DNA of 64,000 nucleotides from Eggerthella lenta DSM 2243 (GCF_000024265.1 NC_013204.1:978180-1042179); one strand, 5' to 3'. Counted from the first letter of the stretch, positions 23,000-53,211 are shown. A program made the numbers and translations. Notes: generated by a model from the sequence alone, not told the origin.

Positions 23000-23012
23000 A
23001 GAGGAAATAATA

Positions 23013-25370: not shown

Positions 25371-25491
25371 TTCCGGTACGGGCCCCATGGCCCGTACCTT
25401 TTTCATCCCGCGCATCTGCATAAATACGCATGCACGCATATGCGCATATGCGCATATGCGTAACCGCACATTTCCGTTTTTACGTGTTTGC

Positions 25492-25526
25492 GCGTTTACG
25501 CATCTGCACATCTGGGTAGATACAGC
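25492..25526 (+). promoter_or_regulatory. Copy 1 of the conserved promoter-like motif GCGTTTACGCATCTGCACATCTGGGTAGATACAGC; CATATGCG repeats lie upstream.
   Basis: TTTACG (-35-like), 16-17 nt spacer, TGGGTAGATAC (extended -10-like). Sits about 30-50 bp upstream of the next + gene. Confidence 0.5.
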
Positions 25527-25575
25527 ACAGGATGCGGGCGCGGGCCCGCGATGGATGACCATGGAGGGATGGCAT

Positions 25576-25944
25576 ATGGGAAGGAAAGAGTCCGCCGGGA
25601 ATCAGGCCGGCACGGCGAGGATGACGGTCGGCGATAGGTTCTGGGCGCGGCGCATCCGCCCGATCTTCGACGACGGCGACCTCACGCTCGAGCAGAAGTC
25701 GGTCTTCTGCTGCATCGTGGCGCGCGACCCCATGTCGGTGGCGATCGAGTGCCCGGCGCGCGACATCGCGGCGGCCGAGGCCGGCCTGCCGCGCCGCGAC
25801 TACGACGAGGCCCTGGACGCGCTCGAGCGCGGCGGCTACATCGTCGACATCGTGACGCCCTACGGCGAGGATCGGGACGGGGAACTCTGCATGGTCCCGA
25901 TCCCCGCCGATATCGTGAAGGAGGGGGTGCAGTGCCGTGGGTAG
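25576..25944 (+). CDS. Hypothetical protein, first gene of the second replication module; alternative starts at 25555 and 25561.
   Basis: GGAGGG RBS 7 nt before ATG 25576. High GC3. Overlaps the start of the following rep gene. Confidence 0.45.
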   Translation: MGRKESAGNQAGTARMTVGDRFWARRIRPIFDDGDLTLEQKSVFCCIVARDPMSVAIECPARDIAAAEAGLPRRDYDEALDALERGGYIVDIVTPYGEDRDGELCMVPIPADIVKEGVQCRG

Positions 25945-27349
25945 CGCCAAGAGACACGACGCATCGGTGCAGTCCGCCGACCCCACCCGCGACGAGCTCG
26001 ACGAGACCTTCGAGATCCTGGACCGCGACGGCGCGGTCGTCGTCTTCGGCGGCGACCTCATGGAGTGCGGCTTCGGCATCGTCTCGGCCAAGGCGACCGA
26101 GGACACCCGCCTGTCGTCGTCGGCCAAGGGCGTATACGCCTACTTCTGCGCCCATGCCGGCGCGGGCACCCATTCGCTGTTCCCGTCCGTGGACACGATC
26201 TGCACCCACCTCGCGATGTCGCGCAACACCTACTACCGCCACCGCCGCACCCTGGTCGAGTGCGGCTACATCAGCGTGCACCAGGGTCGCGCTCAGGGCC
26301 GCGGGCGCTATCTCTCGAACCGCTACGTCGTCAATGCCGAGATCCCCGAGGAGCGCCGTTTCGTGCCTGTCGATAACTCGAAATCGGCCGATGCCGCCGC
26401 TGTTGAAAACTCGCTTGGGGAAGACGCCGAAAACGAAGTTATCAACAACCCGCAGGATTCGCCGTGTACCAAAAATTGGTACACGGGCGACCAAACTAAC
26501 GTTAGTTTGCAACTAGATTCACCGTGTACCAATTTTTGGTACACGGGCCCAACTGGGAAAACGATTTCACCGTGTACCAATTTTTGCGACACTAACAAGG
26601 ATGTTGTTATTGATGTTAGTGAGAGAGGGCGCGCGGGCGCGCTGCCGTCTGTCGAAAACTCGGCGGTGTCGAAGGCCGCGGGCGACTCGGTCACGGTCGT
26701 GAAGGTCGCGTCGGAGGCCGGCCTTGGGCTCGAGACGGAGGTCTCGGTCTCCAACGCCGAGGTGCTTGCCCTCATGCGCATGTCCATCGGCAAGGCGGAG
26801 GTCTTCGCCGACGTCGCCGAGGCTTATGCCCGTGTGCTGGCGGACGGCTGGACGCTTCCGCGCATCGGCCGCGCCTACGACACATACCGCCGCGAGTACG
26901 CGGCATCGCACACCGACGGCCGCTACATCATGTCGCTGCCCAAGTTCCTCGCCGCCGGAAACGGCCTGAGGTTCTACGACCTGAGGGCCGATCTTGTCGA
27001 TTCCGGCGCCGTGGCCGCGGCCGAGGGGAAGGCCGCCCCGTCGAAGGCGCCGACCCGCGAGCAGGTCCGAAATTACGTGCACGAGAAGGGCTATGACGCC
27101 CCCGACCCGGACAATCCCGCCTACCGCGTGATCGACCCCGATGAGTTCTTCGACTACTACGAGGCGACCGGCTGGGTCCGGGCGGGCGGCGTGCCGATCG
27201 TCCGATGGAAGAACGTCGTGAACACCTGGCGCCGCAAGCCCGCGCCGCGCTCCGCCCGTAAGTTCGGCCCGTCCGGGCCGAAGAGGGCCATGAGCGTCGC
27301 CGAGCGCGTGGCCGCCGATAGCGATTTCAGCGAATTCAACGACGACTAG
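25937..27349 (+). CDS. Replication initiator-like protein (wHTH paralog of the 770..1270 product) with an internal iteron/palindrome tract.
   Basis: SSAKGVYAYFCAHAGAGTHSLFPSVDTICTHLAMSRNTYYRHRRTLVECGYISV parallels the first Rep wHTH. It is followed by a DnaC-like gene. A low-complexity linker is encoded by the repeats. Confidence 0.6.
   Translation: MGSAKRHDASVQSADPTRDELDETFEILDRDGAVVVFGGDLMECGFGIVSAKATEDTRLSSSAKGVYAYFCAHAGAGTHSLFPSVDTICTHLAMSRNTYYRHRRTLVECGYISVHQGRAQGRGRYLSNRYVVNAEIPEERRFVPVDNSKSADAAAVENSLGEDAENEVINNPQDSPCTKNWYTGDQTNVSLQLDSPCTNFWYTGPTGKTISPCTNFCDTNKDVVIDVSERGRAGALPSVENSAVSKAAGDSVTVVKVASEAGLGLETEVSVSNAEVLALMRMSIGKAEVFADVAEAYARVLADGWTLPRIGRAYDTYRREYAASHTDGRYIMSLPKFLAAGNGLRFYDLRADLVDSGAVAAAEGKAAPSKAPTREQVRNYVHEKGYDAPDPDNPAYRVIDPDEFFDYYEATGWVRAGGVPIVRWKNVVNTWRRKPAPRSARKFGPSGPKRAMSVAERVAADSDFSEFNDD
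26456..26592. repeat. Three direct repeats, each containing the palindrome GTGTACCAAAAATTGGTACAC, plus CACTAACA..TGTTAGTG inverted repeats; an AT-rich island inside the rep gene and a candidate origin.
   Basis: Copies GATTCGCCGTGTACCAAAAATTGGTACACGGGCG (26456), GATTCACCGTGTACCAATTTTTGGTACACGGGCC (26516), and partial GATTTCACCGTGTACCAATTTTTGCGACAC (26563). Confidence 0.65.
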
Positions 27350-27371
27350 CTCAGACGGAGGGAGAACCGAG

Positions 27372-28403
27372 ATGAACGACACGCAAGCGCAGGCGAGGCC
27401 GGTGAGGCCCACGCTCGAGGAAGTCGAGGCCTACGTCCATGGGAAGGGCTACGACGTGCCCGGCGCCGCCAACGCCTTCTACGGCAACTTCTTCTACGCC
27501 TACCACGACGCCCGCGTCTGGCGGCGCGCGGACGGCACGCCGGTGGCCGACTGGAGGGCGGAGGCGGACACGTGGCATGAGAGGGGGCCGCACTACCTCG
27601 AACCGGAGCCACGCGCCGCTGCCCCGGCACCCGCGGCGTCCGCTCCGGTCTCGGCGCCGGCACCCGAGGCCCCGGTCGCCTCGCCCGAGGCGCTTTCCGT
27701 CGGCGGTGCCCTGCCGCCGCTCGAGGTCGCCGACGTCGCGACCTTGGCCGCGACCGACCGCGCGTTCCATGAGGCGGTGGTCCGCAAGACCGGCATCCCG
27801 CCGCGCTTCGCACGCCGCATCGCCGAGGGCGAGGCCGCCCCGGAGCATGCCTATGACGCGCGACTCGCGCGCGGCGGCGGGCTGTACATCTACGGCCCGC
27901 GCGGCGTGGGCAAGACCGAGCTGGCGTGCCGTATCGCCTACGACTACGCCGGCGCGCGGCTCGATCCCCGCTTCGGCAACTGGGCGTACCGTCCCGTCCC
28001 GAAGGGCAGGCCCAAGCACGGCGTCAGGTTCGTCGTCTCGGCCGACCTCATGACCGAGCTCCGCTCGACCTTCGACAAGGGAGGGGACAGCGAGGCCGAC
28101 GTCATCCGCAGGTACGTGAACGTCCCGGTCCTGATCATCGACGACCTGGGCAAGGACTCCTCGACCCAGTGGGTGCTCGCGAAGCTGTTCCAGATCGTCA
28201 ACGGCCGCTACGAGGCCGAGCGCGCCACGATCGTGACCAGCCAGTACACCCAGGCCGGCCTCGCCGCGGTGCTGTCGGAGTACGGCCGCAAGGAGGACGC
28301 CCTGGCGATCGTCTCGCGCCTGGCCGAGATGACCGAGCGCGTCAAGGTCGACGGCCCGGACCGCCGCATGGCGCCCTGCGACGCCGAGGGGGCCGGGCGA
28401 TGA
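27372..28403 (+). CDS. DnaC/IstB-like AAA+ helicase-loader ATPase (second copy).
   Basis: Walker A LYIYGPRGVGKTELA. Walker B VLIIDDLGKD. ..TIVTSQYT. Ala/Pro-rich N-terminal linker. Confidence 0.75.
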   Translation: MNDTQAQARPVRPTLEEVEAYVHGKGYDVPGAANAFYGNFFYAYHDARVWRRADGTPVADWRAEADTWHERGPHYLEPEPRAAAPAPAASAPVSAPAPEAPVASPEALSVGGALPPLEVADVATLAATDRAFHEAVVRKTGIPPRFARRIAEGEAAPEHAYDARLARGGGLYIYGPRGVGKTELACRIAYDYAGARLDPRFGNWAYRPVPKGRPKHGVRFVVSADLMTELRSTFDKGGDSEADVIRRYVNVPVLIIDDLGKDSSTQWVLAKLFQIVNGRYEAERATIVTSQYTQAGLAAVLSEYGRKEDALAIVSRLAEMTERVKVDGPDRRMAPCDAEGAGR

Positions 28404-28600
28404 GCCGCCGGGCCCCGCAGGAGGGGCGCAGCTATGAGCAGGCCCTCTACTCCGTCGTCCTGCTGGTTCCGCGCCTCCCGAGGCCCGAGCGCACCCGGAC
28501 GGTGAGGGTCCTGCTCGACTTCATCGCCGGCCTCTGGGAGCTGGACCGCTCGCGCGTCGATGCGGATTTCGCATCGCTCGTGCGCGGGCTTCCCCGCTGA
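28400..28600 (+). CDS. Small hypothetical protein, translationally coupled (ATGA) to the DnaC-like gene.
   Basis: ATG overlaps the upstream stop. 66 aa. No recognised domain. Confidence 0.35.
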   Translation: MSRRAPQEGRSYEQALYSVVLLVPRLPRPERTRTVRVLLDFIAGLWELDRSRVDADFASLVRGLPR

Positions 28601-28723
28601 TGTCCGCATAGGTATGTGCATGAGCGTCCGCATATCTGCGCGTTTGCGCATGCACATACCCGCACAGAAGCACAGATGCGAGGGCGCGTATCCGCGCGCC
28701 CTTCTTGATGGATTGAGGTTTCC

Positions 28724-29077
28724 CATGGAGAGGATCGAGGAGATGTCCGCCGAGCGGGCGGAGGGCATATCGCCGGGCTCTACGGCGACGAGCTGTACGG
28801 CCTCGAGCTCGACGGCGAGGTTTCGGGCGAGGGGGCCATGCGGTGCCGGTACGCACCGGTCCATGATGAGGTGAGGGGCATCTGCGATGCGCTGGGGCTG
28901 GACTACGACCGCATCGCGACCGATCGTGCCGGGATGCTCTGGGCGGGCGAGGGGATGCCTCACCGCTTCGACGCATGCTGCGAGATCAGCGACATCGCGA
29001 GGCGCCTGCGCGCCCAGTGCCGCGATGTCGCTTCCCGTTCGGAAAGCCCCGGGCCGCGGCGCCGGCCCCATCGCTAG
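28724..29077 (+). pseudogene. Small gene whose coding signal switches frame near 28770-28780 (frameshift, sequencing error or recoding).
   Basis: High-GC3 reading starts at ATG 28724 (MERIEEMSAERAEGI..) and continues in another frame (..LYGDELYGLELDGEVSGEGAMRCRYAPVHDEV..) ending at 29077. Confidence 0.25.
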
Positions 29078-29147
29078 CAGGCGCTAGCATCTTGCGGAAG
29101 GACACGCATGGGCCGAATGTGCCCGGACAACGGAATGGAGCTTCAAG

Positions 29148-30182
29148 ATGGACAGACGAGAGCTCGAGATCATGTTGAACGATGCCTTCGACCGCGGCAT
29201 CGTCACGGCAAGGGCGGTAGAGGGAATCTATCCCCCCGCCGTCACGGTGGGAATCCTCGACGACCTCGGGCGCGAGATCGACTTCGGGCATGAAGGTAGC
29301 GGGTTGACGGTGTTTCTCCCTGGCATCGAGGACGATGCCCGTTTTGCCGGCTCGTGCAAGGCCCTCGGCGGCAAGGTGCCGCAGAACACCTATCGCATGG
29401 AACTTGTCTCGGCGATCGCCGGCGAGCTCATGGGCGCCGAGTCCGCCACCGCGCTCAGCGCCCTGGAATCCGCCCTGGACCGCGCGAGGCGAAGGGGCTA
29501 CTGCGTGTTCGACCGCGGCATCCATGACGACGTCCCGGATCCCGGGCTGGTCTACCTGTGCTCGACCTACCCGGCGGCCGTCCGCCTGAAGGACTCCCTG
29601 GACTTCGTCCGGGCTCAGGGCAACGAGCCGGACCGTCACGCGCTCGGCACATACCGCATGGTGGACGGGTACTGCATCATGGGAGGGTTGGACGAGGTGC
29701 CGCTGGCGGACGCATACGCCGTGGATGCGGCCCTTATCGAGGACTGGGGTGTCGGCGATGCCGTCTTCCGCATCACCGACCTCAAGGCGAAGACGTTTTC
29801 GTATGCCGTCGACGCCGACGGCGGGCAGAAGGCGTCGACGCTCGTCTACTACACCGATGAGGGCTCCGACCCGGTCCTCTTCCAGCAGACCGGCGGCGGC
29901 TGGCGCCTGGCGAGCGACAACTTCCTCGCCGAGAACTCGATCGTCGAAGACTTGGAGCGCGTCTATACCGGCGAAGTCTCGCCGGTATACCTCGATTCGC
30001 GAATCGTCGACATGGAGGAGATGGCCGAGGCCTACGGCTGGGTGAGGCCGGGGAGGACCCCGGCCTCCATCGCCGCCGGCGCCCGGAAGGCCGCCGCGTC
30101 CTCGGCGGCCGAGGAATCCTCCCCCGGCAAGGTCGCCGCCGCGGCCCGCGAGGCCTCGAAGGACTCGGCTCCCCGACACTGA
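29148..30182 (+). CDS. Hypothetical protein, 344 aa.
   Basis: GGAG RBS 7 nt upstream. Consistent high GC3. No recognised domain. Confidence 0.5.
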   Translation: MDRRELEIMLNDAFDRGIVTARAVEGIYPPAVTVGILDDLGREIDFGHEGSGLTVFLPGIEDDARFAGSCKALGGKVPQNTYRMELVSAIAGELMGAESATALSALESALDRARRRGYCVFDRGIHDDVPDPGLVYLCSTYPAAVRLKDSLDFVRAQGNEPDRHALGTYRMVDGYCIMGGLDEVPLADAYAVDAALIEDWGVGDAVFRITDLKAKTFSYAVDADGGQKASTLVYYTDEGSDPVLFQQTGGGWRLASDNFLAENSIVEDLERVYTGEVSPVYLDSRIVDMEEMAEAYGWVRPGRTPASIAAGARKAAASSAAEESSPGKVAAAAREASKDSAPRH

Positions 30183-30302
30183 TACCATGGTGGGTGCGGA
30201 TGCGCCCGCAGGCGCTTTGGCATACACACACAAACGCTCAACCGCGCATCCGCACATATCCACACATCCGCATCCGCATATATGCGTAAAAGGGGACGTG
30301 CC

Positions 30303-30452
30303 ATGATTGGAAACGTCTTGAAGCCCGACGGCACGGTGCATATCGAGCAGCAGGTCGGCAACATGCGGTACGACCTCACGACGGGACAGGTGGAGACGGT
30401 GGTCCCCGCGGCGGGCGCCACGAACCTCGTCTTCGGTGCCGACGGCCACTAG
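30303..30452 (+). CDS. Possible small protein of 49 aa (MIGNVLKPDGTVHIEQQVGNMRY..).
   Basis: AAGGGGA RBS just after a CA/TG-rich promoter-like tract. Below the ORF-track length cutoff. Confidence 0.3.
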   Translation: MIGNVLKPDGTVHIEQQVGNMRYDLTTGQVETVVPAAGATNLVFGADGH

Positions 30453-30787
30453 CGCATCGAGCTCACGGCCGGCAACATTCGTCAGAATCTCGGTAGGCCG
30501 GGTTTCGATACGCTCCTGTAGGTTCCGCAATCGCACATACGCATACACGTACACATACGCAGTTGCGCATACGTACACTCGCACAATGGAACACATGCAC
30601 GTCGGCATATCTACGCACATGCACATAGCCGCACACGCGCCCATCGGGCTCTAGCCCCGGTGGACGCCTTGTTTCCGGCCGTTTTCCGTATCCGGTGTTT
30701 AAGCCGCCGGATACAGGGGATAACCACCTGAGGGGAAACGGACAGCGCCGAGGGAGGGCGCGCCCCGAAAAGGAATGGAGAACGGAA

Positions 30788-31180
30788 ATGAGGATACCCG
30801 CAAGGGCGGCAGGGCCGCTCGTCGCCATGGCCATAGCCGCAGCATCGTTCGGCTGCATCGCGCCCGCGGCTTACGCCGAGAACGCGACCGCCGCCGTGAT
30901 CTCCGACGACGGTGATCATGTCGTCGTCGACGTCGACCTGAACGGAAGTGCGCCTGTCGGCGACGCGACCGAACAAGCCGATATGAAAAGCAGTCAGGGC
31001 GAATCGGTTTCCGATGCGGAACCAGACGAGGCCTTGAAAGCATTCGAGGCTCTGATGACGGCCAACGGCATCATTATAAGATCAGCGTTTTACTACATCT
31101 TACTGCCGTCTCTCTTCGCGATGGCCTTGCCTCTCCTCTTATACGAATTGCTGGAGCTACATGATCGCCGCCGCCTTTGA
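30788..31180 (+). CDS. Secreted/membrane hypothetical protein.
   Basis: Signal peptide AAGPLVAMAIAAASFGCIAPAAYA. C-terminal TM helix LLPSLFAMALPLLLY. Confidence 0.45.
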   Translation: MRIPARAAGPLVAMAIAAASFGCIAPAAYAENATAAVISDDGDHVVVDVDLNGSAPVGDATEQADMKSSQGESVSDAEPDEALKAFEALMTANGIIIRSAFYYILLPSLFAMALPLLLYELLELHDRRRL

Positions 31181-31297
31181 GTCCCGACGGTTGGACTGAA
31201 CCGGTGTCGTGCCGATCGTGAGCCCGGTCCGCCCCCGACGAAGTTATCTATAACCGGGCGGCTCTGCCCGAGCCGTCCTTGAAGGGAAGGAAACCCT

Positions 31298-32704
31298 ATG
31301 ATGCTTTTCGAATCTTTGATCTTCAACCTGCTCCCCGCAGCCGTCGGCATCATGGCCGTCGTGCTGGTGTTCGAGAGCTGCTGGCGCAAATGCCCGCCGG
31401 ATAAGCTCATGATCGTCTCCGGCGCCGGCAAGATGCGCTCCGTCTCCGGCAAGGGAACCTTCGTAATCCCGCTCCTCCAGCGCGTGGACACCCTCTCGCT
31501 CGGTGCCGTGCAGGTGCAGCTGACCACCGAGAACGATATCCCGACGCAGGACGCAATCCTCATCCACGCCTGCGCCGTGGCGAACTTCCAGATCGGCCAG
31601 ACCCCCGAGCTGATCGAGACCGCGTCCAAGAACTACCTGAATTTGGACAAAGAGGAGATGACCCGCCAGGTCACCGAGGTCATGCTGGGCAAGATGCGCG
31701 AGGTCATCGGCCAGATGGACCTCAAGGAGCTCATGCGCGACCGTGAGAGCTTCAACGCGAAGGTCTTCGGCGGCTCCAAGGATGACCTCGCCAACCTCGG
31801 CCTCGAGCTGCGCACCTTCAATGTGCAGGACTTCTCCGACTCCCAGGGCATCATCCGCTCCATGGGCGCCGATCAAGCGGCCGAGATTAAAAAGGAAGCC
31901 GAGCTGGCGCAGATCAAGGCGGCCGAGGAGGTCGCCATCCGCCAGAACCAGCTCGACTTGAAGCAGGCCGACCTCAAGAAGCAGGCCGACAAGGCGAAGG
32001 CCGAGGCCGATATGGTGAAGGCCACCGTGACGGCCGAGAAGCAGCGCGAGCTCTACATCGCCCAGCAGGAGGCCGAGATCGCTGCGGAGACCAAGAAGGT
32101 CGAGCTCGCCGAGCGCCAGGCGGACGTGAGGGAGCGCGAGCTGAACGCGACCGTGAAGAAGCAGGCAGAGGCCGACCGCTACGCCGCAGAGCAGGCGGCC
32201 GAAGCCGACCTCTACAAGCGCACGAAGCAGGCCGAGGCCGCCCGCATCGAGCGTCAGAACCAATCCGACGCCGAGCTGTATTCCGTCCAGAAGGACGCCG
32301 AGGGCATCCAGGCCCGCGCGAAGGCCGAGGCCGAGGCCACGCGCTTGAAGGGCGAGTCCGAGGGTGTGGCCGAGAAGGCCCACGGCGAGGGCGTCGCGGC
32401 GGGAATCAAGGCCCAGGCCGAGGCGTACAACGGCATGGACAACCCCTACCTGCTCGCCAACCGCTACATCGACATCATGCCCAAGGTAGCCGAGCAGGTT
32501 GCGAAGCCCCTCACTGCCGTCGATTCCATCAAGATGTACGGATCGGGCAACGCGCAAAAACTCGTAAAGGAGACCACATCGATTGTCGACCAGGTCGCAT
32601 CCGGCCTGAAGGACAGCACGGGAATCGACCTGCCGTCCCTGCTGAACGGTCTGATCTCGAACCCCGATATCGATGCCGACTCCGCCGAGAACTCGGTGGA
32701 GTGA
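31298..32704 (+). CDS. Flotillin / SPFH (band-7) family protein.
   Basis: N-terminal TM. SPFH core (..VQLTTENDIPTQDAILIHACAVANFQIG..). Long Ala/Glu/Lys coiled coil, then the flotillin C-terminal region. Confidence 0.85.
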   Translation: MMLFESLIFNLLPAAVGIMAVVLVFESCWRKCPPDKLMIVSGAGKMRSVSGKGTFVIPLLQRVDTLSLGAVQVQLTTENDIPTQDAILIHACAVANFQIGQTPELIETASKNYLNLDKEEMTRQVTEVMLGKMREVIGQMDLKELMRDRESFNAKVFGGSKDDLANLGLELRTFNVQDFSDSQGIIRSMGADQAAEIKKEAELAQIKAAEEVAIRQNQLDLKQADLKKQADKAKAEADMVKATVTAEKQRELYIAQQEAEIAAETKKVELAERQADVRERELNATVKKQAEADRYAAEQAAEADLYKRTKQAEAARIERQNQSDAELYSVQKDAEGIQARAKAEAEATRLKGESEGVAEKAHGEGVAAGIKAQAEAYNGMDNPYLLANRYIDIMPKVAEQVAKPLTAVDSIKMYGSGNAQKLVKETTSIVDQVASGLKDSTGIDLPSLLNGLISNPDIDADSAENSVE

Positions 32705-33078
32705 TGGTCGTCCAGCTGATCGCCTCGGCCTTGCTGCTCGATTTCTTCGGCTGCATGATGCCCCTGGCATTGGTCGAGGACACCAAGGCATTTAAGGTCG
32801 GCGTGTTCCTGATTTGGGCGGCGCTGGTGGCGGATTCCGTCCTGATGGGCTTGTTCTATCCGAGGGAGCTGGCGGGGGTGAATCCCCTGTTGGCGGCAGG
32901 TCTCGAATCGATATGCCTCATCTGTGCCATGTATCCCCTGCATGGGTTCGCATCGAACTTGGCCCCCTGTGGCATCCGGGTCGATACTGCCGCGGCCCTC
33001 GCCTTCATAGACTTCCTCGTGACCGCTGTGGGATATGTCTCCCTGCTCTTGGGTACGATCTGGCTTATATTCTTCTAG
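32701..33078 (+). CDS. Polytopic membrane protein coupled to the flotillin gene (possible NfeD-like partner).
   Basis: GTGATG overlap with the flotillin stop. 4 hydrophobic helices. Confidence 0.55.
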   Translation: MMVVQLIASALLLDFFGCMMPLALVEDTKAFKVGVFLIWAALVADSVLMGLFYPRELAGVNPLLAAGLESICLICAMYPLHGFASNLAPCGIRVDTAAALAFIDFLVTAVGYVSLLLGTIWLIFF

Positions 33079-33203
33079 GCTCGCAGGCATATGGACCTGT
33101 CGACCATCAAGCCGGAGGGTTCCGAGGAGTAGTACCGGCGCGGGCCGCCCGCACGTCGCGCAGACCGTCGGGCGGCCTTTTACATCGAAGGGGAGTGTGT
33201 CCC

Positions 33204-33704: not shown

Positions 33705-33967
33705 ATCGCCGGCACATCTGTCCGGATGCATATCCGCACATCGGCATACATACGCCGAGGCACATACGCGCACATACATATATACACACCGGCGCTATCG
33801 TACCCGTTTGCGCATCGGGGTATACGGGCGCGCGGGGAAATGCGCGGAAGCATATCCGCCCCGCCTTCCAAAACTTCCTATAGTTTCTGCGAAACCCCCG
33901 TTCAGCGTATATTTTTTCGCTTGCGCGGGTATCAATTCCCCGTTACTGGTCGAACGGATGACGGGAT

Positions 33968-35812: not shown

Positions 35813-35820
35813 CGACAACG

Positions 35821-35862: not shown

Positions 35863-35875
35863 CGCGGGCGGATCG

Positions 35876-42709: not shown

Positions 42710-42895
42710 GGACCACCTCTTTATTGGAATTGGCATACACAGCAGCTTTGATACCCGCCCCCGCCGCGCTTTACACGCCCCTACCGAAACTCGACGGATA
42801 AAAATGCCCCCGCACCGGCTCGAATCGAGTGAAAGACTTCCCGCGCACGGGGTAGAAACAGCTGGGACGGTACACATCCGCGCGAAAGGTCGGAC

Positions 42896-43720
42896 ATGTC
42901 TAGGGTGGCCTATGGGCAAAAGGGATACAGCGGCGCCTCCATGAGCGTGAACGCGCGGGCGGCCTACGAGGCGGGGGAGATGCTCCGCTCGAAATGGACC
43001 AAGACGGCGATCCTCGGCGCCTTGAGGGGCTACTGCGATGAGATGGACCTGCTCTACGACCCTGCGGTCGAGTCCGAGACCAAGGCCGCGCTCTTCGACC
43101 GGTTCATCGCCTCCTCGTCCTGGCACCACACCGGCGCCTACGCCCGCGAGACGGAGTTCTTCGCCCTGGACGAGGCCGCCGTGGTCGGGGCGTTCCGCGA
43201 GCTCGGGCCCGAGGAGACGGCCGAGCGCGACCGGATCCGGGCGCAGGCTGCGGCCCGGGTGCGGGAGGCGGAACGGCATCGGAGGGAAGCGGAATGCCTA
43301 TTCGAGTACCGCTTCTCCTGCTCCCCATATAGCGCCATGGCGTACGAGGCGTTCCATCCCGAGCTGTGCGAGCGCCGTGTGAGCAAACACAGGAAGCAGG
43401 AGCTCGTCGTGTACCGGCTGCCGGACGGCAGCGAGCCGTCGGGCTATGCGGAGATGTCCGTCCCGGCGGACTATGCGGACAGCAGCCATGTGGTGCCGTC
43501 GGTTTTCATATCCGGCACGGGCGGGGATCGCGCGTGGCGCGATATCGACTTCGACGAGGCCGAGCGGAAATTCGCAGCGGCGGCGAGAAGGGCCGCGGCC
43601 TTTCGCGAGGGGAGACCGAAGCTCATGCAGGACGAGGCCAGGCGCGCTGCGATACGTGAGACTCGGCACCGCGTCTGCACCGCCCCCATTTTGAAGAGCA
43701 TAAAGGAGATTCACAGGTGA
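42896..43720 (+). CDS. Hypothetical protein, divergent from the PIWI operon.
   Basis: High GC3 ORF. A lower-GC divergent promoter region (42710-42895) separates it from the operon. Confidence 0.45.
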   Translation: MSRVAYGQKGYSGASMSVNARAAYEAGEMLRSKWTKTAILGALRGYCDEMDLLYDPAVESETKAALFDRFIASSSWHHTGAYARETEFFALDEAAVVGAFRELGPEETAERDRIRAQAAARVREAERHRREAECLFEYRFSCSPYSAMAYEAFHPELCERRVSKHRKQELVVYRLPDGSEPSGYAEMSVPADYADSSHVVPSVFISGTGGDRAWRDIDFDEAERKFAAAARRAAAFREGRPKLMQDEARRAAIRETRHRVCTAPILKSIKEIHR

Positions 43721-44274
43721 CGGGGAAGAATGTCTATACGATGACGGCGATGACGAGGCGAGCGTTCGTGGGCCTCGCGGTCATGGCGGCGCAGGCCGGA
43801 CTCGCGGGCTGCGTGAGGAACGGGGCGCCGGACGCCGGCTCCTCCGACGGCGGCGCCGGGAAGTCGGGCGATGCCGGCACCTCGTCGCCGTTCGCGCCGC
43901 AGCAGTCCGCCCAGGCGTCCGTGGACGGCATCTCGATCGACCGCGTGACGATCGAGGAAGGCACGGGGCCGGACGGCAAGCCGTTCCGCTACATCCGGGT
44001 TGCCTATACCTTCGAGAACGTCACGGACTCGGACGCTGTCGCACCCTATACCGACATCAACGCATACCAGGACGGGATCAAGCTCGACAGGTCCTACAAG
44101 GTGCAGGACCAGCGGGCGCAGAAGCAGATCGAGCCGGGCGGGAAATTGAAGTCGTTCACGGCGTTCGCCCCCGATTCTGAGACGGTTCCGGTCACGGTCA
44201 AGGTGATGGCGCCCGGCGAGAAGGAGCCGAGGTCGGAGCGATGCTACTGCATCGTGAACCCGGGCCTGCAATAG
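43717..44274 (+). CDS. Tat-signal lipoprotein.
   Basis: AAGGAG RBS 8 nt before GTG. RRAFVGLAVMAAQAGLAGC (twin-Arg plus lipobox). Confidence 0.6.
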   Translation: MTGKNVYTMTAMTRRAFVGLAVMAAQAGLAGCVRNGAPDAGSSDGGAGKSGDAGTSSPFAPQQSAQASVDGISIDRVTIEEGTGPDGKPFRYIRVAYTFENVTDSDAVAPYTDINAYQDGIKLDRSYKVQDQRAQKQIEPGGKLKSFTAFAPDSETVPVTVKVMAPGEKEPRSERCYCIVNPGLQ

Positions 44275-44320
44275 GCCGCCCCGCTCGCACGTCCACACAT
44301 ATATGTATATGCGCGTCTAT

Positions 44321-44355
44321 GCGTTTACGTACATGCGCATATGGGTAGACTCACA
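44321..44355 (+). promoter_or_regulatory. Copy 2 of the conserved promoter-like motif (GCGTTTACGTACATGCGCATATGGGTAGACTCACATC).
   Basis: Same TTTACG..TGGGTAGA architecture as copy 1; upstream of gene 44390. Confidence 0.45.
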
Positions 44356-44389
44356 TCGAGTAGAGACGAAACGGGAGGGGATGGTCCGC

Positions 44390-44812
44390 ATGGCGCCGTT
44401 CATCAGTGAAAATATCGACCTGGTTCCTTGCATGGCCATGGCATTCAACGCGGCGATTGCGACCATGGGTTTTCTGAAAATGGTTGCATGGACCGAGCAC
44501 GGCATGTCGTCGAGGATGTCCAGATACATCGACAGGTTCGGCAAGATGGGCATCGACCGCGAGATTTTGGAGGTCTATGCGCGATCGTATCTCGACGAGT
44601 CGCGCAACGCGCTCATCTGCTGGATCGTTGGCCTCGCCATCACTATGGCTGTGGGGATTGTCATCTGGGCCCACGACGTCGGCGCGGTAGTCCTCCTGAC
44701 ATCCGTGGTCGCGGCGGCGGTATCGATCAGGTGCATCGTCATGGCAGTGAGGGATGTGGCGGATATCCGCGACGTCCTGGCCGAAATCGACCTAGGCACC
44801 CCGACCGCGTGA
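44390..44812 (+). CDS. Membrane protein, hypothetical; alternative start at 44381.
   Basis: GGGAGGGG 9 nt upstream of ATG 44390. Several hydrophobic helices. Confidence 0.45.
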   Translation: MAPFISENIDLVPCMAMAFNAAIATMGFLKMVAWTEHGMSSRMSRYIDRFGKMGIDREILEVYARSYLDESRNALICWIVGLAITMAVGIVIWAHDVGAVVLLTSVVAAAVSIRCIVMAVRDVADIRDVLAEIDLGTPTA

Positions 44813-45582
44813 TTTGCCCTGGCATCCAATCAATAGGGACAAGCAGATATTCAGAAGGGACTCGATATGGGTATGCAAAGCTATATGGCGACGGTATTTG
44901 TCGGCGAGCGTGAGATTGGCGGGCCTTTTGTAAACGGTGATTTTCGTTCAAGCCTGAACTTCGCGAGGCGAGAGCTTCGCGGATACCTGCGCCTGGCTGA
45001 GAGTATCTGACGGCAGGAAGTCATGGGTGGTCGCCGTCATGGCCTTCGTTGCGTAACCGCCCCGGCGCTTGATTTTGGCATCCTTACCGAGACGAAGGAT
45101 AGCGAGACCGCCACCGTGGAGTCCAGCTTTACCGTGACGTCGGCCTACACGGCCGAGGATTTCGTATCGGATACGCGAAGCGAGTTTCTTGCCTGCGTCA
45201 CGGAAGATTTCGGCGAGCAGGTCGCATCGGAGGCTGCAAGTCTCGTCGATGGTCAAATCGCGTCGATGTCGTGGTATAGGCGCTTCGAGATATGGAACGA
45301 CCTCGCATCCTACGACATATGCGGCGTTGCGAACGCCGATCATCTCATCGACGGGCTCGAGGAGCTTTCCGTCGCGCTCGCCGATGGCCGCGCGTTCGAC
45401 GCAAACGGTGGAAACCCCGTCTTCCATGCTTTTCACCGGGCCGAGCGGCAAAGTGGCGACAGAGAGTTACCTGTGCCTGCCAGACGTACTCATCGACATC
45501 ATTGAGACAGGGGCTTCGGGCAACCGGAGCTCTTTTCTAATATGAGCCGGCACCTCCACGGTACCGGCCCAATAACGACTGC

Positions 45583-46011
45583 CTACATATCCCAGATCTC
45601 GCTCAGCCGCTCATCGTCCGCGGCCTCCTCCTCGAAGCGGAACTCGTAGGGGATGGCCAACCTGGTGAGCTCAAAGGCCACCTTTCTGGTCATGGCGTTC
45701 GAGATTCGCGCCGCGCGCGCATCCTCCGCGGCTAAGTCCTGCTCGCGGAAGTAGGGGAGCGGGTAGGGGTTGCCATCCGTCTCATCGACAATCTTCTCCA
45801 CCAGGCACCCGACCTCGCGCTCTTGGATTTCCGCCAGATTCTCGAGGTACTTCCATGCCACGGCAGTGGCGCGGGCTCGCGGCAGGCGCGGTCTTTCCCA
45901 GTTCTTGACGGTCTTCACGTCGACGCCCGCTGCCTCCGCGACATCGGACTGGTAGAGCCCCAGGCTCTCGCGCAGCACCTTGAAGCCCGCCTTGGTGTGG
46001 ATGGTCTGCAT
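45583..46011 (-). CDS. XRE-family helix-turn-helix transcriptional regulator.
   Basis: LRESLGLYQSDVAEAAGVDVKTVKNWE is a canonical Cro/CI-type HTH. Confidence 0.65.
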   Translation of the reverse strand: MQTIHTKAGFKVLRESLGLYQSDVAEAAGVDVKTVKNWERPRLPRARATAVAWKYLENLAEIQEREVGCLVEKIVDETDGNPYPLPYFREQDLAAEDARAARISNAMTRKVAFELTRLAIPYEFRFEEEAADDERLSEIWDM

Positions 46012-46026
46012 ATCCGTTCCTTTCAT

Positions 46027-46653
46027 CTAGATTCTCTTCTCGAAGAGCCCGTGATAGACCTCATCGATCTCGTCCTGGTATTCGCACAGGAATTCGCAGC
46101 GTCCGACCACGAGTGCGACGAAAAGCTCGTCGACGGTGGCAATGCCGTAATCGTGGAACCCCGCGGGAAGGTAGAGCGTCCCGTTGTAGGGCGCATGTCC
46201 GACCCGGTAGCAAGAGAAGTCCCCGAAGGCCGATCCCTCCACGCGGTACAGGCTGTAGTAGTCCCCGGCACGCTTCGCAGTGTCGATCGCCTCCGTGTGG
46301 CCGGCGATATGGCGGATGATCTTCCCGTCCGCACGGTTCGCGGCCGCCTCGCGCGCGAGCGTGCGCAGCTCGGGCATGCGGTCGAGCGGGTCGACGGTGT
46401 GGACCGTATCCATGTGTTCCGTGAACCCCTCGCCGTTGCGCGTGATTTCGCTCACTGTGGCGACGAACCGGGCGAAACCGCGCTGGCAGACCCCGACCCT
46501 GGAGGCCGCCGAGACCTTATGCGCCGCACGCAGTGCCTCCTCCCGGCTGTCCCCCTCGTAATGCAGCTCCGACGAATGGAGCGGCCGCACGTCGATATCC
46601 TCGGTTCCCGTGAACAGCATCTCGCGCGATTCCGTCACGAAGATCGTTTCCAT
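46027..46653 (-). CDS. Hypothetical protein, co-oriented with and immediately upstream of the XRE gene.
   Basis: GGGAGGA RBS. High GC3. 208 aa. Confidence 0.5.
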   Translation of the reverse strand: METIFVTESREMLFTGTEDIDVRPLHSSELHYEGDSREEALRAAHKVSAASRVGVCQRGFARFVATVSEITRNGEGFTEHMDTVHTVDPLDRMPELRTLAREAAANRADGKIIRHIAGHTEAIDTAKRAGDYYSLYRVEGSAFGDFSCYRVGHAPYNGTLYLPAGFHDYGIATVDELFVALVVGRCEFLCEYQDEIDEVYHGLFEKRI

Positions 46654-46924
46654 ATAGTCCTCCCATATGCGCACCGGGCGGCCCCATACCGCCTGCTCTA
46701 CCTCTCTTGTACCCCCTGAGGGGAAACGTAAACGCACGCCGCGGAAAAATCGCCGGACCGGGTTCGGGAAAAGGACGGGGCCGAAAACGGCCCCTGTCTT
46801 GAAATCTGGATATGGAATCAATCAATCATCGCCATGTCGAACGCTTATATGCGAACTCGGAATCGATCATCGCTGCGCAGTCCTTCCGAGGGCGGGGCCG
46901 TCGTGCTATCTGGCGGAACTAGCC

Positions 46925-47677
46925 TTATTTACCCGCCGTCGGGCGTAGCGCCAACAGGTCATTCCTGATCTCATCGAGCAGCTTCCTGCACTTGAGCTCC
47001 GCGGCCTCCATCGGGCTGACGTATCCATCCTCATGCGGGTCGAAAATCATATCCGGGTCTGGCAGCCATTTGCCGTCGTCCTCGCCGAAGGCGGTCTCGG
47101 TCATGATGTCGCAGAGGCCCAGGAGCCTGACGAAGATATCGCTCTCCCCGACATATGGGGTCGCGCGTCGGCACGCGCGGAGGTACACGTCGAGCGTCTG
47201 GAGGAACAGGTCCTCGGTGCCGATCTCCCAGGGAGGACGGGACTTATCGTCTTCCGGGTTCACCTTGATGTCGTGCAGAATCGAGTCCGGCACGCAGCGC
47301 AGGTCTGTAGTCGGCCAGACGAAATGATCGGTCTCCTCGCACAGGTCGAGGAAGTCGTAGGCCTGGTTCCATAGCACGCAGAGCACATCCAGCTGGTTTT
47401 CGGTGAGTTTTTCGTCCATGGTCCTATCTCCTGATTCTATGAGGAGGTCGGCGACGTCGATGTGCGCCCAGCAGGCGATATCCTCGACCTTCTCGAAGTC
47501 GCTCGGAGCGTGCGTCCCGCGCCGCCAGTCCTTAATCGATGAGATCGAGACGTGCATCGCGCCCGCGAGCTCCCGCATCCTGGCGGCGCCTTTGGCGCCG
47601 TGTCCTAGCAACGAATCGAACACGGCGGGGGAGAACGCGAACGTCCCGTCGCCAATCCTGTAGGTGTCTTTCCGCAT
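46925..47677 (-). CDS. HTH-domain protein with an acidic C-terminal domain.
   Basis: N-terminal ..ARMRELAGAMHVSISSIKDWRRG is HTH-like. High GC3. Confidence 0.5.
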   Translation of the reverse strand: MRKDTYRIGDGTFAFSPAVFDSLLGHGAKGAARMRELAGAMHVSISSIKDWRRGTHAPSDFEKVEDIACWAHIDVADLLIESGDRTMDEKLTENQLDVLCVLWNQAYDFLDLCEETDHFVWPTTDLRCVPDSILHDIKVNPEDDKSRPPWEIGTEDLFLQTLDVYLRACRRATPYVGESDIFVRLLGLCDIMTETAFGEDDGKWLPDPDMIFDPHEDGYVSPMEAAELKCRKLLDEIRNDLLALRPTAGK

Positions 47678-47758
47678 TGCGGCATCTCTCTTTCTCAATC
47701 CTTGCCGACAATGTTATCTGTGGCGCGGCCGTCTACGGAGACGAACCTGGACGGACCT

Positions 47759-48028
47759 CTACCCGTCCGGCTTCACGGAGAACCACAGACCGTCGTCGCA
47801 GATCAGCCCGCGCGCGACACATCGACCGCCGACGTCCACTAGGACGCCGGTCACGGTGGCGTCCGCCTTGCCGAACATGCTGGGGCAGGGCAGCGTCGCG
47901 CCGACCCTGGCGATCTCGAAGCGCCGCCCGTCGCACACGATTGCCCTCGGGGTGTTGAGCCCGCACTTTCGGTCGGTCTCGACCGCTATGGGGACGACCT
48001 TGGCGTCGAACCTGCTGCATCCGCCCAC
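47759..48028 (-). CDS. Small hypothetical protein, 89 aa.
   Basis: Very high GC3 and co-orientation with neighbours. No recognised domain. Confidence 0.4.
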   Translation of the reverse strand: MGGCSRFDAKVVPIAVETDRKCGLNTPRAIVCDGRRFEIARVGATLPCPSMFGKADATVTGVLVDVGGRCVARGLICDDGLWFSVKPDG

Positions 48029-48188
48029 GTGCCGGACCTCCCTCCCGCTCGGTATCGCGCGCCACGCGCGCGATACCCCCGCCGTCTCCCACCCTGGATA
48101 CCGCCCTGCGATCCCAACGGGAAGGGCATCCGGGGCGGTACCGCCCGCGCTGCGGTCTCACCGCGCAGCAGGCGGCCTATGGCCATGC

Positions 48189-48899
48189 CTATTCGGCCGA
48201 CCCGATGCGGTTGCCGTTCGTGTAGTCGGAATAGGCCCGCTCCCAAGCGTCCTGCACGCGGCGGGAGTCGCATATCTTGCAGAAGATACCCGTCTTGGGC
48301 GAGCCGTCGCGCAGCATGAACGTGATGAAGCAGAAGTCTCCGATATCGGGATCCTCGTTCATCATCATGGCGCCGCAGGTGTCCAGCACCTCGCGGTTGT
48401 CCTCCTGCGACCCGCCGAGGATATCGATCGTGCAGGTGGCCGTATCCGACGGTCCGACGAGGCCATCCGGCACCGCCGGCAGTGCATCCGGGTCGGTTCC
48501 GTCGATCTCCCCAAGGATGCGCGTCTCGAACGTCGAGTTTGCTGCGCGCAGGCGTCCGAGTGCGTCCGCGTATGCGATCGACGAGACGAGGCGTTCGAGC
48601 TCCCTGGCGGCAGCCTCGGCGCTGTCCGCATATCCCCGCGGGTCCTTTTCCATGAGCGCGTCGGCGAGCATGGCGACGGCCGCCTCGGCAACCCTGCCGG
48701 ACTTGCCCATGTCGTCGGCGCACTCGCCGGCGAGTGCCGACAGCGCGCTCGAGTAGAAGGGGATGTCGCTGCGGCGTCCGAACCTCTCGGCCACGCGCCC
48801 GCAGGACTCCCTCCATCGTTCCATCAGCGCGAGCCTCAGGTTCGCCGTCTCATCGTGCTCGATGGGCGACACCGTGTCGTGATCCGTAGCCATGTCCAT
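48189..48899 (-). CDS. Hypothetical protein.
   Basis: High GC3. No recognised domain. Confidence 0.45.
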   Translation of the reverse strand: MDMATDHDTVSPIEHDETANLRLALMERWRESCGRVAERFGRRSDIPFYSSALSALAGECADDMGKSGRVAEAAVAMLADALMEKDPRGYADSAEAAARELERLVSSIAYADALGRLRAANSTFETRILGEIDGTDPDALPAVPDGLVGPSDTATCTIDILGGSQEDNREVLDTCGAMMMNEDPDIGDFCFITFMLRDGSPKTGIFCKICDSRRVQDAWERAYSDYTNGNRIGSAE

Positions 48900-49110
48900 A
48901 TCCTTCCGTTTCCGTTCCATCCCGCTCCCACGGCTTCCCTAGAGAGCCGTTTACCCCGAATCGCCCCCGCTCATGCCCGCTAAATTGAGATCGGGGAGGA
49001 AGGCCGCCTGTCCGTATCTTCCCGTCCGCATCGGAATCGGCTGTTTCCGATGCGCCCGAACGGGGTATCAACTGGTAATACCGAATGAACGACTTGGGCA
49101 AGGAGCAGCC

Positions 49111-49542
49111 ATGTATACGGACGATGACGAGATCGGGCGCGCCGTCGCTGCCGATCTGGAGGAATGCTGGCAGGGCGAGGGCTGGTACCGAATCTGCTTC
49201 ACCGACGGGATGGGATCGTATCCGGCCACATGGTATGGAACCGAAGCGGACCTTGCCGACGACCTTCGCGGTGCCTACGGGGATGCCGGCGAGATCCATC
49301 TGCCCTACGCCGAAATCTCTGTGATCGATCAGGCGGTCGAGAAGGTCTGGCAGGGCGAGGGATGGTATCGGGTGACGGGCGGCGACGGCGAGAAATGGGA
49401 GCCGGACTTCTACGTTACACGCGAATGCCTAGTCGCCGCACTGCGCGACGCCTACGACGAGGCATCCTTCAGCGGCGCCATATGCGTCCCACGTGTAGAG
49501 CCGGCCCCGGACCCTAACCGGCGCCGAACGCACGCCTTCTGA
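49111..49542 (+). CDS. Hypothetical protein with two tandem WQGEGWYR-containing repeats.
   Basis: AAGGAGCAGCC RBS. Internal duplication ..CWQGEGWYRICFTDG.. and ..VWQGEGWYRVTGGDG.. Confidence 0.5.
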   Translation: MYTDDDEIGRAVAADLEECWQGEGWYRICFTDGMGSYPATWYGTEADLADDLRGAYGDAGEIHLPYAEISVIDQAVEKVWQGEGWYRVTGGDGEKWEPDFYVTRECLVAALRDAYDEASFSGAICVPRVEPAPDPNRRRTHAF

Positions 49543-49708
49543 ACCGCCCCGTGATTCAAACTGGGCGAGAACCGAACCGGAGGAATCGCTACGCGTTTCC
49601 CACAACCGGCTGCCTACGGGACGTATGGGGTCCCTCCGGTCATCCGGCCATGGAAAACGCCGGGCTCCGGTGCCAGCCCAATACATAGCCGCACAAACGC
49701 ACATCTAT

Positions 49709-49742
49709 GCGCTTACGCATCTGAGCATCTGGGTACATACAT
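49709..49742 (+). promoter_or_regulatory. Copy 3 of the conserved promoter-like motif (GCGCTTACGCATCTGAGCATCTGGGTACATACATGG), upstream of ssb.
   Basis: Same architecture, 55 bp upstream of the ssb start. Confidence 0.5.
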
Positions 49743-49796
49743 GGCGACGAAGGCGGGGGGATCGGCCCCTCGTCGGAACCGAAAGGATAGAAGCCA

Positions 49797-50222
49797 ATGA
49801 GCATCAACCGAGTCAACATCACCGGAAACCTCACCCGCGATCCCGAGCTCCGCGCCACCGCGGCCGGCACCCAGGTGCTCTCGTTCGGCATCGCCGTCAA
49901 CGATCGCCGAAAGAACCCGCAGACCGGCGAGTGGGAGGACTATCCCAATTACATCGACTGTACCATGTTCGGCACCCGCGCCGAGGCTGTCGGCCGCTAT
50001 ATCTCCAAGGGGAGCAAGGTCGCGATCGAGGGCAAGCTGCGCTATAGCTCCTGGGAGCGCGACGGCCAGAAGCGCAGCAAGCTCGAGGTCATCGTCGACG
50101 AGATCGAGTTCATGAACTCCCGCCCTGCCGCGTCTCCTGCTGCCGCGGTTGATGGTGGACAGCAGTATGCGGTCCCCGAGGCTCCCGCCGTCGAGGTTGC
50201 GGACGAGGACATCCCGTTCTAG
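49797..50222 (+). CDS. ssb: Single-stranded DNA-binding protein.
   Basis: MSINRVNITGNLTRDPELR..VLSFGIAVNDRRK..WEDYPNYIDCTMFG..KVAIEGKLRYSSWE and the acidic tail DEDIPF are canonical SSB. Confidence 0.85.
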   Translation: MSINRVNITGNLTRDPELRATAAGTQVLSFGIAVNDRRKNPQTGEWEDYPNYIDCTMFGTRAEAVGRYISKGSKVAIEGKLRYSSWERDGQKRSKLEVIVDEIEFMNSRPAASPAAAVDGGQQYAVPEAPAVEVADEDIPF

Positions 50223-50458
50223 CCGACCCGTACAACCCCATACTCAAGTGATCGCCCCACCGGAGACGGCGGGGCTTTTTCATGCCGTAGCCCGTCTCCA
50301 CACGTTTCCCACACCCGGCTGCCTATGGGACGGATGGGGTCCCGCCGGTCATCCGGCCATGGAAATCGCAGGCCAGGGGCCTGCCGACCGGTGTCCGGGC
50401 GGCCCGCTGGGCAAATTATCGAATTACGCAGACGCATACGTGCGCATTTACGTGTTTG

Positions 50459-50495
50459 TGCGTTTACGCATGTGCGCAGCTGGGTACATACATAC
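50459..50495 (+). promoter_or_regulatory. Copy 4 of the conserved promoter-like motif (GTGCGTTTACGCATGTGCGCAGCTGGGTACATACATACC).
   Basis: Same architecture, upstream of gene 50559. Confidence 0.5.
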
Positions 50496-50558
50496 CAGCG
50501 GCAAGGGAGGCCGCGACCGCGTCGGCGCGGGATCGCCGAATATCGGAAGGAGGCCGTC

Positions 50559-50831
50559 ATGGCCGGTTGCAAGAGGGAAGTAATGGAGCCGAGCGGAAGG
50601 GAGAAGGTCGCCGCCGCCGCCGCGCTGGTCGCGGGGCTCGTCGGGATGTGGTTCATGCTCGCATACAGCTATGTCTACATCAACTGCGCCGTGTTCCCGG
50701 TGGCGGGCGCGCTCATCGCGTACGCCTACGACGTGGCGGAGAGGACGGTGGCGGCACGGAAGGAGTGCTGCCGCAAGGTCGAAACGCGCCGCGCGTATCG
50801 CGCCGCGAGGGCGTCGGAATACGGCGCATAG
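50559..50831 (+). CDS. Small membrane protein, 90 aa.
   Basis: GGAAGGAGG RBS. Two hydrophobic helices. Confidence 0.45.
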   Translation: MAGCKREVMEPSGREKVAAAAALVAGLVGMWFMLAYSYVYINCAVFPVAGALIAYAYDVAERTVAARKECCRKVETRRAYRAARASEYGA

Positions 50832-50885
50832 CGGCGCCGGCGGGCAAGAATAAGTAAACGCGCATCCGCACAAGTATGCAGATGT

Positions 50886-50920
50886 GCGTTTACGCATCCG
50901 CATAACTGGGTACATATATG
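50886..50920 (+). promoter_or_regulatory. Copy 5 of the conserved promoter-like motif (GCGTTTACGCATCCGCATAACTGGGTACATATATGG), upstream of parA.
   Basis: Same architecture. An inverted partial copy (GCGCATCCGCACAAGTATGCAGATGTGCG) lies immediately upstream. Confidence 0.5.
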
Positions 50921-53208: not shown

Positions 53209-53211
53209 AGG

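Follow-up and report, generated by a model that had tools for sequence, protein, structure and literature searches.

Repeated intergenic sites on a conjugative element

We analysed 64,000 nucleotides (nt) of Eggerthella lenta DSM 2243 (GCF_000024265.1, NC_013204.1:978180-1042179; hereafter the window, with positions counted from its first letter), in which a family of short, promoter-like repeats lies in front of genes of a conjugative element. The window has a GC content of ~64% and consists almost wholly of this element, which is undescribed and shared among gut Coriobacteriia. Its transfer half (1-17 kb) encodes a type IV secretion system (T4SS) coupling protein, a PrgI-like protein, a VirB4-like ATPase, an NlpC/P60 hydrolase and a TrbL/VirB6 protein, as well as a thioester adhesin and a sortase. 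The window also holds two replication-like modules (HTH_36 plus IstB-like ATPase), two genes for single-stranded DNA-binding protein (SSB), parA with a small ribbon-helix-helix (RHH) gene, and nikA with a MOB relaxase gene. Neither a tRNA gene nor an Rfam family was detected in the window, and no integrase or recombinase was found in its 64 kb. Of annotated DNA, parA from two Collinsella aerofaciens plasmids comes nearest and was the only match in the plasmid collection; the phage collection gave none.

An earlier note on this DNA had pointed out five copies of a ~35-bp motif upstream of a gene of the second replication module, a membrane-protein gene, ssb, a small membrane-protein gene and parA. 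All five were recovered on the plus strand (25488-25527, 44317-44356, 49705-49744, 50456-50495 and 50882-50921), and checking each gap confirmed that they are intergenic and co-oriented with the following gene, which encodes a 122-amino-acid (aa) protein, a 143-aa membrane protein, SSB, a 90-aa membrane protein and ParA, respectively. A position weight matrix built from the five copies scores them at 51-60 bits and the best unrelated site at 17 bits; scores of 21-34 bits derive from repeat tracts or from the reverse strand of the same promoters. The 12-mer GCGTTTACGCAT has 15 matches with up to two mismatches in the window compared with 4.8 expected, a count that none of 100 shuffles attained. 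When aligned, the copies share GTTTAC, 14 nt and GGGTA(C/G), the copy at 44321 being the most diverged.

An exact search of the whole window for GTTT-N(15-19)-GGGTA returned nine matches where 0.43 would be expected, and eight of these are intergenic and aimed at the next gene (binomial P ~2e-9, based on an intergenic share of 12.3% of the window). The remaining match, at 40942, runs antisense within the pPIWI_RE gene of a defence module and was treated as a chance occurrence. Nine sites are called promoters here, namely the eight intergenic exact matches and P49711, which carries a GCTT variant (Table 1). The five copies of the earlier note therefore stand, but they are part of a family of nine core sites that extends to position 56196 and includes one member on the minus strand. 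The four added sites precede a 143-aa gene, a 121-aa gene, the nikA-relaxase genes and a minus-strand regulator operon. Spacers between the boxes were tallied at 14 nt eight times and at 13, 17 and 18 nt once each, with no other length represented. A Shine-Dalgarno sequence and start codon follow the sites at 33-195 nt, and P25494 and P55143 each have an intrinsic terminator directly before them; that of P25494 separates its unit from upstream transcription. A possible tenth member at 33907 is weaker due to one mismatch to the core, although its GTAT recurs as a -35 variant at orthologous promoters in other lineages. Because of their position and orientation, the upstream terminators, the downstream ribosome-binding sites and a sharp conservation footprint (see below), it is very probable that the repeats serve as promoters for a set of element genes that are regulated together, in line with what the earlier note had proposed.

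Table 1 Promoter sites, candidate operator boxes and neighbouring features of the window
Feature	Sequence or structure	Position	Strand	Downstream gene or context
P25494	GTTTAC-N14-GGGTAG	25494..25519	+	ATG 25576, 122-aa gene; then HTH_36 Rep 25937-27349 and IstB-like ATPase 27372-28403
P44323	GTTTAC-N14-GGGTAG	44323..44348	+	ATG 44381, 143-aa membrane protein
P46733	GTTTAC-N13-GGGTAC	46709..46733	-	ATG 46653, 208-aa gene; then XRE helix-turn-helix gene 45583-46026
P49043	GTTTCC-N14-GGGTAT	49043..49068	+	ATG 49111, 143-aa protein with internal WQGEGWYR duplication
P49711	GCTTAC-N14-GGGTAC	49711..49736	+	ATG 49797, ssb; GTTTAC in lineages L047 and L022
P50462	GTTTAC-N14-GGGTAC	50462..50487	+	ATG 50559, 90-aa membrane protein; GTATAC in diverged lineages
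P50888	GTTTAC-N14-GGGTAC	50888..50913	+	149-nt structured leader, parA 51062-51610; then 99-aa RHH gene 51610-51909
P55143	GTTTGG-N14-GGGTAG	55143..55168	+	Right after terminator 55037-55068; ATG 55214, 121-aa gene
P56171	GTTTAA-N14-GGGTAG	56171..56196	+	195-nt leader, nikA (GTG 56391); relaxase 57004-59064
Possible tenth member	GTATAT-N14-GGGTAT	33907..33932	+	36 nt before PIF1-like helicase gene (33968)
Intrinsic terminator	10-bp stem, then TTTTT	25375..25398	+	After SSB-like gene
Operator-like 12-bp palindrome	TGCGTTTACGCA	50459..50470		Overlaps -35 of P50462
Same 12-bp box	At most one mismatch	25491-25502, 44320-44331, 49708-49719, 50885-50896		
Extra upstream 12-bp box	At most one mismatch	25457-25468		
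Inverted repeat	17-nt arms	50854..50893		Right arm contains P50888 -35
Analogous inverted repeat		49690-49719		P49711 -35 box is the right arm
Alternating purine-pyrimidine tract	39 nt, containing three overlapping CGCATATGCG	25424..25462		Upstream of P25494
Further alternating runs	30, 30, 23 and 18 nt	30532-30561, 33760-33789, 44294-44316, 44326-44343		Like the 39-nt tract, intergenic by promoters
Direct repeat	78 nt, 88% identical	49586-49663, 50295-50372		Intergenic, ~45-90 nt upstream of P49711 and P50462
Inverted repeat	CATACTTGTAC ... GTACAAGTATG, perfect, 11 bp	56222-56260		Leader between P56171 and nikA
Defence cargo	SNF2 helicase plus DUF4391, OLD-family nuclease, DNA methylase	17428-24773		Low-GC patch (48-59% GC)
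Defence cargo	pPIWI_RE module: X/MID/RNaseH protein, 1233-aa Z-domain protein	35876-42089	-	
AbiEii toxin		63083-63829	-	Right end of window

Sequence class, distribution and conservation

Two blocks are kept across the nine sites, GTTT (eight sites, with GCTT at P49711) and GGGTA, with 14 nt between them. By sequence, this promoter family belongs to the class recognized by SigB/SigF (group 3) sigma factors. The -35 block agrees with GTTTWW and with the relaxed actinobacterial form GNNT, which accommodates the lineage variants GTAT, GCTT and GATT; the -10 block agrees with GGGTAY or GGGWAW, since GGGTA is present at nine of nine sites; and the spacer of 14 nt (eight promoters) or 13 nt (one promoter) is as short as in this class (~14 bp, range 12-16, compared with ~17 bp for sigma-A). 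The same arrangement is found in Pctc of Bacillus subtilis (GTTTAA-N14-GGGTAT) and among Streptomyces SigB-family promoters, which include GTTTGC-N14-GGGTAC (SCO3557p) and in which the -35 is relaxed to GNNT (PMC8346170), as well as in the SigF consensus of Mycobacterium smegmatis (GTTT-N(14-19)-GGGTA; PMC4694148). For sigma-B of Staphylococcus aureus, GTTTWW and GGGWAW separated by ~14 bp are reported, against a sigma-A spacer of ~17 bp (PMC11156646).

The earlier note had read the five copies differently, as a TTTACG -35 box, a 16-17 nt spacer and a TGGGTAcATA extended -10 box, and this part of it did not survive. A sigma-70 consensus scan placed no site at any copy, with none in 24800-34200 and a single unrelated one in 44000-57000. 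Relative to a TAnnnT -10, T at -7 occurs in only three of nine sites and is missing from four of the five core copies, and the TG lies at -16/-15 rather than -15/-14, and TG is absent from each of the four non-core sites. The sigma-70 reading fails because T at -7 is mostly missing, TG is out of register and the non-core sites are without a TTGACA-like box. Experiments designed around a sigma-70 -35 and an extended -10 would mutate the wrong bases.

A strict 29-nt pattern was searched in 185,579 species genomes and found in 25 stretches of about a dozen genomes, all belonging to the same element except for a single match in Lysobacter that we take as chance. The carriers are Collinsella, Gordonibacter, Eggerthella and unnamed Coriobacteriaceae, and the spacings of 751 and 426 nt are kept. 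The earlier note had allowed that the motif might prove to be a generic promoter consensus of the host; given its confinement to the element in these genomes, the strict motif is element-specific instead. In 335 kb of high-GC locus DNA without alignment to the window, the loose core motif was encountered twice, compared with 163 times in 641 kb of alignable DNA, and of those two matches one is the Lysobacter site, found by the pattern itself, and only the other is unbiased. Two native Collinsella plasmids (50 kb in total) contain no core match, even with one mismatch allowed at N14. The one independent match (GTTTAT-N14-GGGTAC, 5349-5374) was observed in a distant element, L062, where it is intergenic and lies ~50 nt before a gene encoding a protein with several helix-turn-helix (HTH) motifs. 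The presence of the same pattern there argues for a factor common to the hosts and not one belonging to a single element. L062 is itself a conjugative element, of which only ~2 kb can be aligned to the window at 70% identity; the spacer of its site is an alternating purine-pyrimidine run, and the protein encoded downstream has four HTH-like repeats.

Carriers from two orders, Collinsella (Coriobacteriales) on the one side and Gordonibacter and Eggerthella (Eggerthellales) on the other, have the element of the window at ~98-99% identity (loci L001-L033), which indicates recent spread across orders. It was found on contigs of up to 372 kb. Two short contigs binned into metagenome-assembled genomes of Bacillota and Porphyromonadaceae (L012, L015) are 99.6-99.8% identical to window positions 42821-47804 and probably represent a mis-binned mobile element rather than cross-phylum carriage.

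Near-identical copies from the genome scan and a lineage with NikA at 88-91% have identical promoters and are therefore uninformative with respect to a footprint, so that metagenome loci were used. Distant relaxase representatives were aligned and metagenome contigs scanned, which yielded lineages at 85-95% nucleotide identity and also the distant element; seven promoters with 6-39 unique variants each were compared, with the window as reference. The share of differing cells was 11.5% in the 50 nt upstream and 6.5% in the 10 nt before the -35, fell to 4.7% in GTTT and 3.4% in the spacer, reached its minimum in GGGTA (0.2%, 1/580), and amounted to 3.2% in the 10 nt after GGGTA and 4.7% further downstream. 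In the most diverged lineages the promoters, e.g., P49043, P49711 and P46733, stand out as conserved islands amid rewritten flanks.

Palindromes and neighbouring repeats

Beyond the presumed sigma determinants, the five core copies share a 12-bp palindrome, TGCGTWWACGCA, centred on the -35, and in addition CTGGGTACATAYA. With up to two mismatches, TGCGTWWACGCA has 18 matches in the window compared with 5.9 expected; matches with at most one mismatch are located almost exclusively at the -35 boxes of the core copies, plus an extra copy 34 bp upstream of P25494. TTACGYR boxes are similarly concentrated, with 9 of the 15 in the window falling in the five promoter regions. At P49711 the inverted repeat that includes the -35 becomes a perfect 13-bp repeat in lineage L047 via changes on both arms. 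The association of many copies with CATATGCG palindromes, as claimed in the earlier note, was overstated: perfect copies are confined to 25435-25460, and we rejected CATATGCG as a shared operator. Three overlapping copies in this same interval, at one of the five promoters, are the sole perfect occurrences of the palindrome CGCATATGCG, and copies with one mismatch are located in the promoter spacers at 44336 and 50467. We infer that TGCGTWWACGCA is a better operator candidate than CATATGCG for a dimeric regulator. Candidate regulators encoded on the element are two minus-strand XRE-type proteins (45583-46026 and 46925-47698) and the 99-aa RHH product of the gene behind parA, which shares 32% identity with a Collinsella plasmid protein of the CopG family.

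Several other repeats accompany the sites. The alternating purine-pyrimidine tracts listed in Table 1, which are Z-DNA-prone or highly flexible, can be set against first-order Markov simulations in which the longest such run was 21 nt and the mean maximum 16 nt; in one lineage, a T-to-A change in the -35 of P50462 extends an alternating run to 22 nt. The 78-nt direct repeat, of which there are just two copies in the window, can fold into a long, imperfect hairpin, for which the minus strand gives clearly better values (-47 kcal/mol and z -3.9 for copy 1), and its right arm is not kept in L047 and L022. It could be a site resembling single-strand initiation (ssi) or single-strand origin (sso) sequences, a terminator or a small inserted repeat. 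In other lineages, the inverted repeat in the nikA leader carries a C-to-G change on one arm and a compensating G-to-C change on the opposite arm; it is likely a repeat of the origin of transfer (oriT) bound by NikA, or else a leader hairpin. The 143-aa gene at 49111-49542 adjoins ssb and would belong to the leading region if transfer runs away from the relaxase gene; its product contains WQGEGWYR twice and has a weak Pfam match to the anti-CRISPR protein AcrF2 (E 0.04, below threshold).

Recognition of the promoters and comparison with known systems

We consider it reasonably probable that the repeats act as core promoters for a regulon of the ~65-kb conjugative element and are read by RNA polymerase carrying a host SigB/SigF-type sigma factor. 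At least nine promoters of the form G(T/C)TTnn-N14(13)-GGGTAn would then be recognized through a -35 of GTTT (loosely GNNT) and a -10 of GGGTA located 14 bp downstream, with transcription predicted to start a few bases past the -10 and to proceed through a leader of 25-195 nt into each gene. The genes driven in this manner would comprise the second replication module, ssb, parA with the RHH gene, and nikA with the relaxase gene, further those of the 143-aa and 90-aa membrane proteins, the separate 143-aa gene and the 121-aa gene, and on the other strand the 208-aa gene with the XRE regulator. Dependence on a host sigma factor would tie the expression of maintenance and relaxosome functions to the state of the host, e.g., stress or stationary phase. 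In the core subfamily, where the -35 lies inside TGCGTWWACGCA and often has a second direct or inverted copy upstream, a dimeric regulator of the element could occlude the -35, and it is possible that an element repressor acts on this palindromic box.

The proposed origin of the sigma factor relies on searches of the element. Pfam, PHROGs and NCBIfam identified no sigma factor among the open reading frames (ORFs) of the window. With SigB and SigF queries, in which sigma regions 2, 3 and 4 were confirmed, phmmer retrieved nothing resembling SigB or SigF from all six-frame ORFs of the window (best E-value 1) and nothing of the kind from ~1 Mb of related loci, and visual inspection of the unannotated proteins revealed no HTH like that of region 4. 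The earlier note had left the choice between a host sigma factor and an element-encoded regulator; as no sigma gene was found on the element, a host sigma is favoured, and we infer that the cognate factor is host-encoded. A literature search for sigma factors or promoters of Coriobacteriia, or for the element, returned nothing.

Several observations weigh against this interpretation. No such promoter is present in the T4SS half of the element, and the regulon therefore falls short of the whole element; the region upstream of the T4SS operon in L026 contains no member of the class. In the footprint the -35 core (4.7%) is no better kept than the spacer (3.4%), and the signal rests mostly on the -10; moreover, the lineages compared form one element family and their variant counts are not independent events. 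Finally, the sixth -10 base is C at four sites, T at one and G at the other four, where the Firmicute consensus has T or W, although GGGTAG is also found among Streptomyces SigB-family promoters (PMC8346170).

Alternative explanations account for parts of the same data. The copies could be ordinary Coriobacteriia promoters of the sigma-A type whose extended -10 is rich in G (TTTACG -35, TAsAyw -10), which we regard as unlikely. In actinobacterial sigma-A promoters a G is often found a short distance before the -10, the TTTACG of the core copies matches TTGACA at four of six positions with a 16-nt spacer to TAGATA or TACATA, and three of the nine -10 regions do read TAnnnT (TAGACT, TAGCAT and TAGGAT). 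However, T at -7 is absent from the other six, TG is one base out of register, non-core sites such as that with GTTTGG are nearly devoid of a TTGACA-like -35, and the GGG before TA is invariant at all nine sites and across lineages without being required by sigma-A. The sigma-70 scan misses every site, and the Collinsella plasmids and the 335 kb of other locus DNA are without the motif, the two loose matches in the latter aside. A role of the repeats mainly as binding or recombination sites, i.e., centromere/operator arrays of the RHH protein, iterons of Rep or junctions of module shuffling, appears improbable in light of the non-core members, the orientation and the position of the best-kept block. 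It would accommodate the RHH gene after parA with its homology to a CopG-family gene of Collinsella plasmids, the clustering of TGCGTWWACGCA palindromes and TTACGYR boxes at the sites, the long alternating purine-pyrimidine tracts that flank them and the sharply diverging flanks around constant cores, as expected at recombination junctions. Yet the palindromes are absent from the four non-core members, which have nothing but GTTT and GGGTA in common, every site is oriented like the gene that follows it at a leader-like distance, and GGGTA, the most conserved block, lies outside the palindromes; a binding role would in any case add to a promoter role and not replace it.

The specificity could also be provided by the element itself, through a factor unlike known sigmas that makes the regulon independent of the host, as in some phage promoter sets. 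Near-identity of the element in two orders of Coriobacteriia would favour such self-sufficiency, the five core copies share ~35 nt and thus more than a sigma factor usually needs, and more than a dozen ORFs of the element match no family. Against this, no ORF shows sigma regions 2 or 4 or an RNA-polymerase-like domain, the two blocks with their 14-bp spacer fit an existing sigma class exactly, and L062 displays the same pattern with different genes, which points to a shared host factor; we give this explanation little credence. We would similarly be surprised if the hosts had no SigB/SigF-type sigma and an unrecognised element protein redirected RNA polymerase to GNNT-N14-GGGTA, in which case a widely shared element of Coriobacteriia would be transcriptionally autonomous.

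If a stress-type sigma factor of the host reads these promoters, replication, SSB, partition and relaxosome functions would follow the stress or stationary-phase programme of the host. This would offer a testable route by which conditions in the gut might control gene transfer in Coriobacteriia such as Collinsella, Gordonibacter and Eggerthella. Nine defined promoters and a candidate operator would also become available for Coriobacteriia, a bacterial class with few genetic tools.

Compared with established SigB/SigF-type promoters, i.e., those of sigma-B in B. subtilis and S. aureus, SigF in Mycobacterium and the nine SigB homologues of S. coelicolor, the sites described here have the same two blocks and ~14-bp spacer. 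They differ in being situated on a mobile element before replication, ssb, partition and relaxase genes instead of stress genes, in the extra palindrome over the -35 of one subfamily, and in their Coriobacteriia hosts, for which we found no description of this sigma class. The candidate RHH regulator has a possible parallel in omega of pSM19035, an RHH protein encoded beside a ParA-type ATPase, which binds short direct and inverted repeats overlapping several promoters and co-regulates genes for copy number, partition and stability. With regard to omega/ParG-type arrays, an RHH homologue by parA and repeated boxes are present here; omega, however, binds contiguous 7-bp heptads at sigma-A promoters, whereas the boxes here are 12-bp palindromes, one to three per promoter, and do not form contiguous heptads. 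Repeated promoter units before ssb and small genes by oriT, all pointing to oriT, are also reminiscent of the Frpo/ssi single-strand promoters in the leading regions of F-like and IncI plasmids, in which both -35 and -10 lie in the stem of a long hairpin formed by the transferred strand. A reading of this kind was rejected, as the -10 lies outside hairpins in seven DNA folds, save for short 4-bp helices in three of the seven. Fold z-scores of -0.04 to -1.9 mark six of the seven regions as unexceptional, and the hairpin at P25494 (z -4.5) takes in only the -35.

A precedent for the proposed control is ICEclc of Pseudomonas, whose activation is reported to depend on the host stationary-phase sigma factor RpoS (PMC3395598). 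That dependence was reportedly shown experimentally, whereas the dependence proposed here is deduced from sequence features, and RpoS is a group 2 sigma factor acting on another promoter type in another host phylum. What the two systems would have in common is a conjugative element that places key promoters under an alternative sigma factor of the host and thereby ties its transfer to host physiology.

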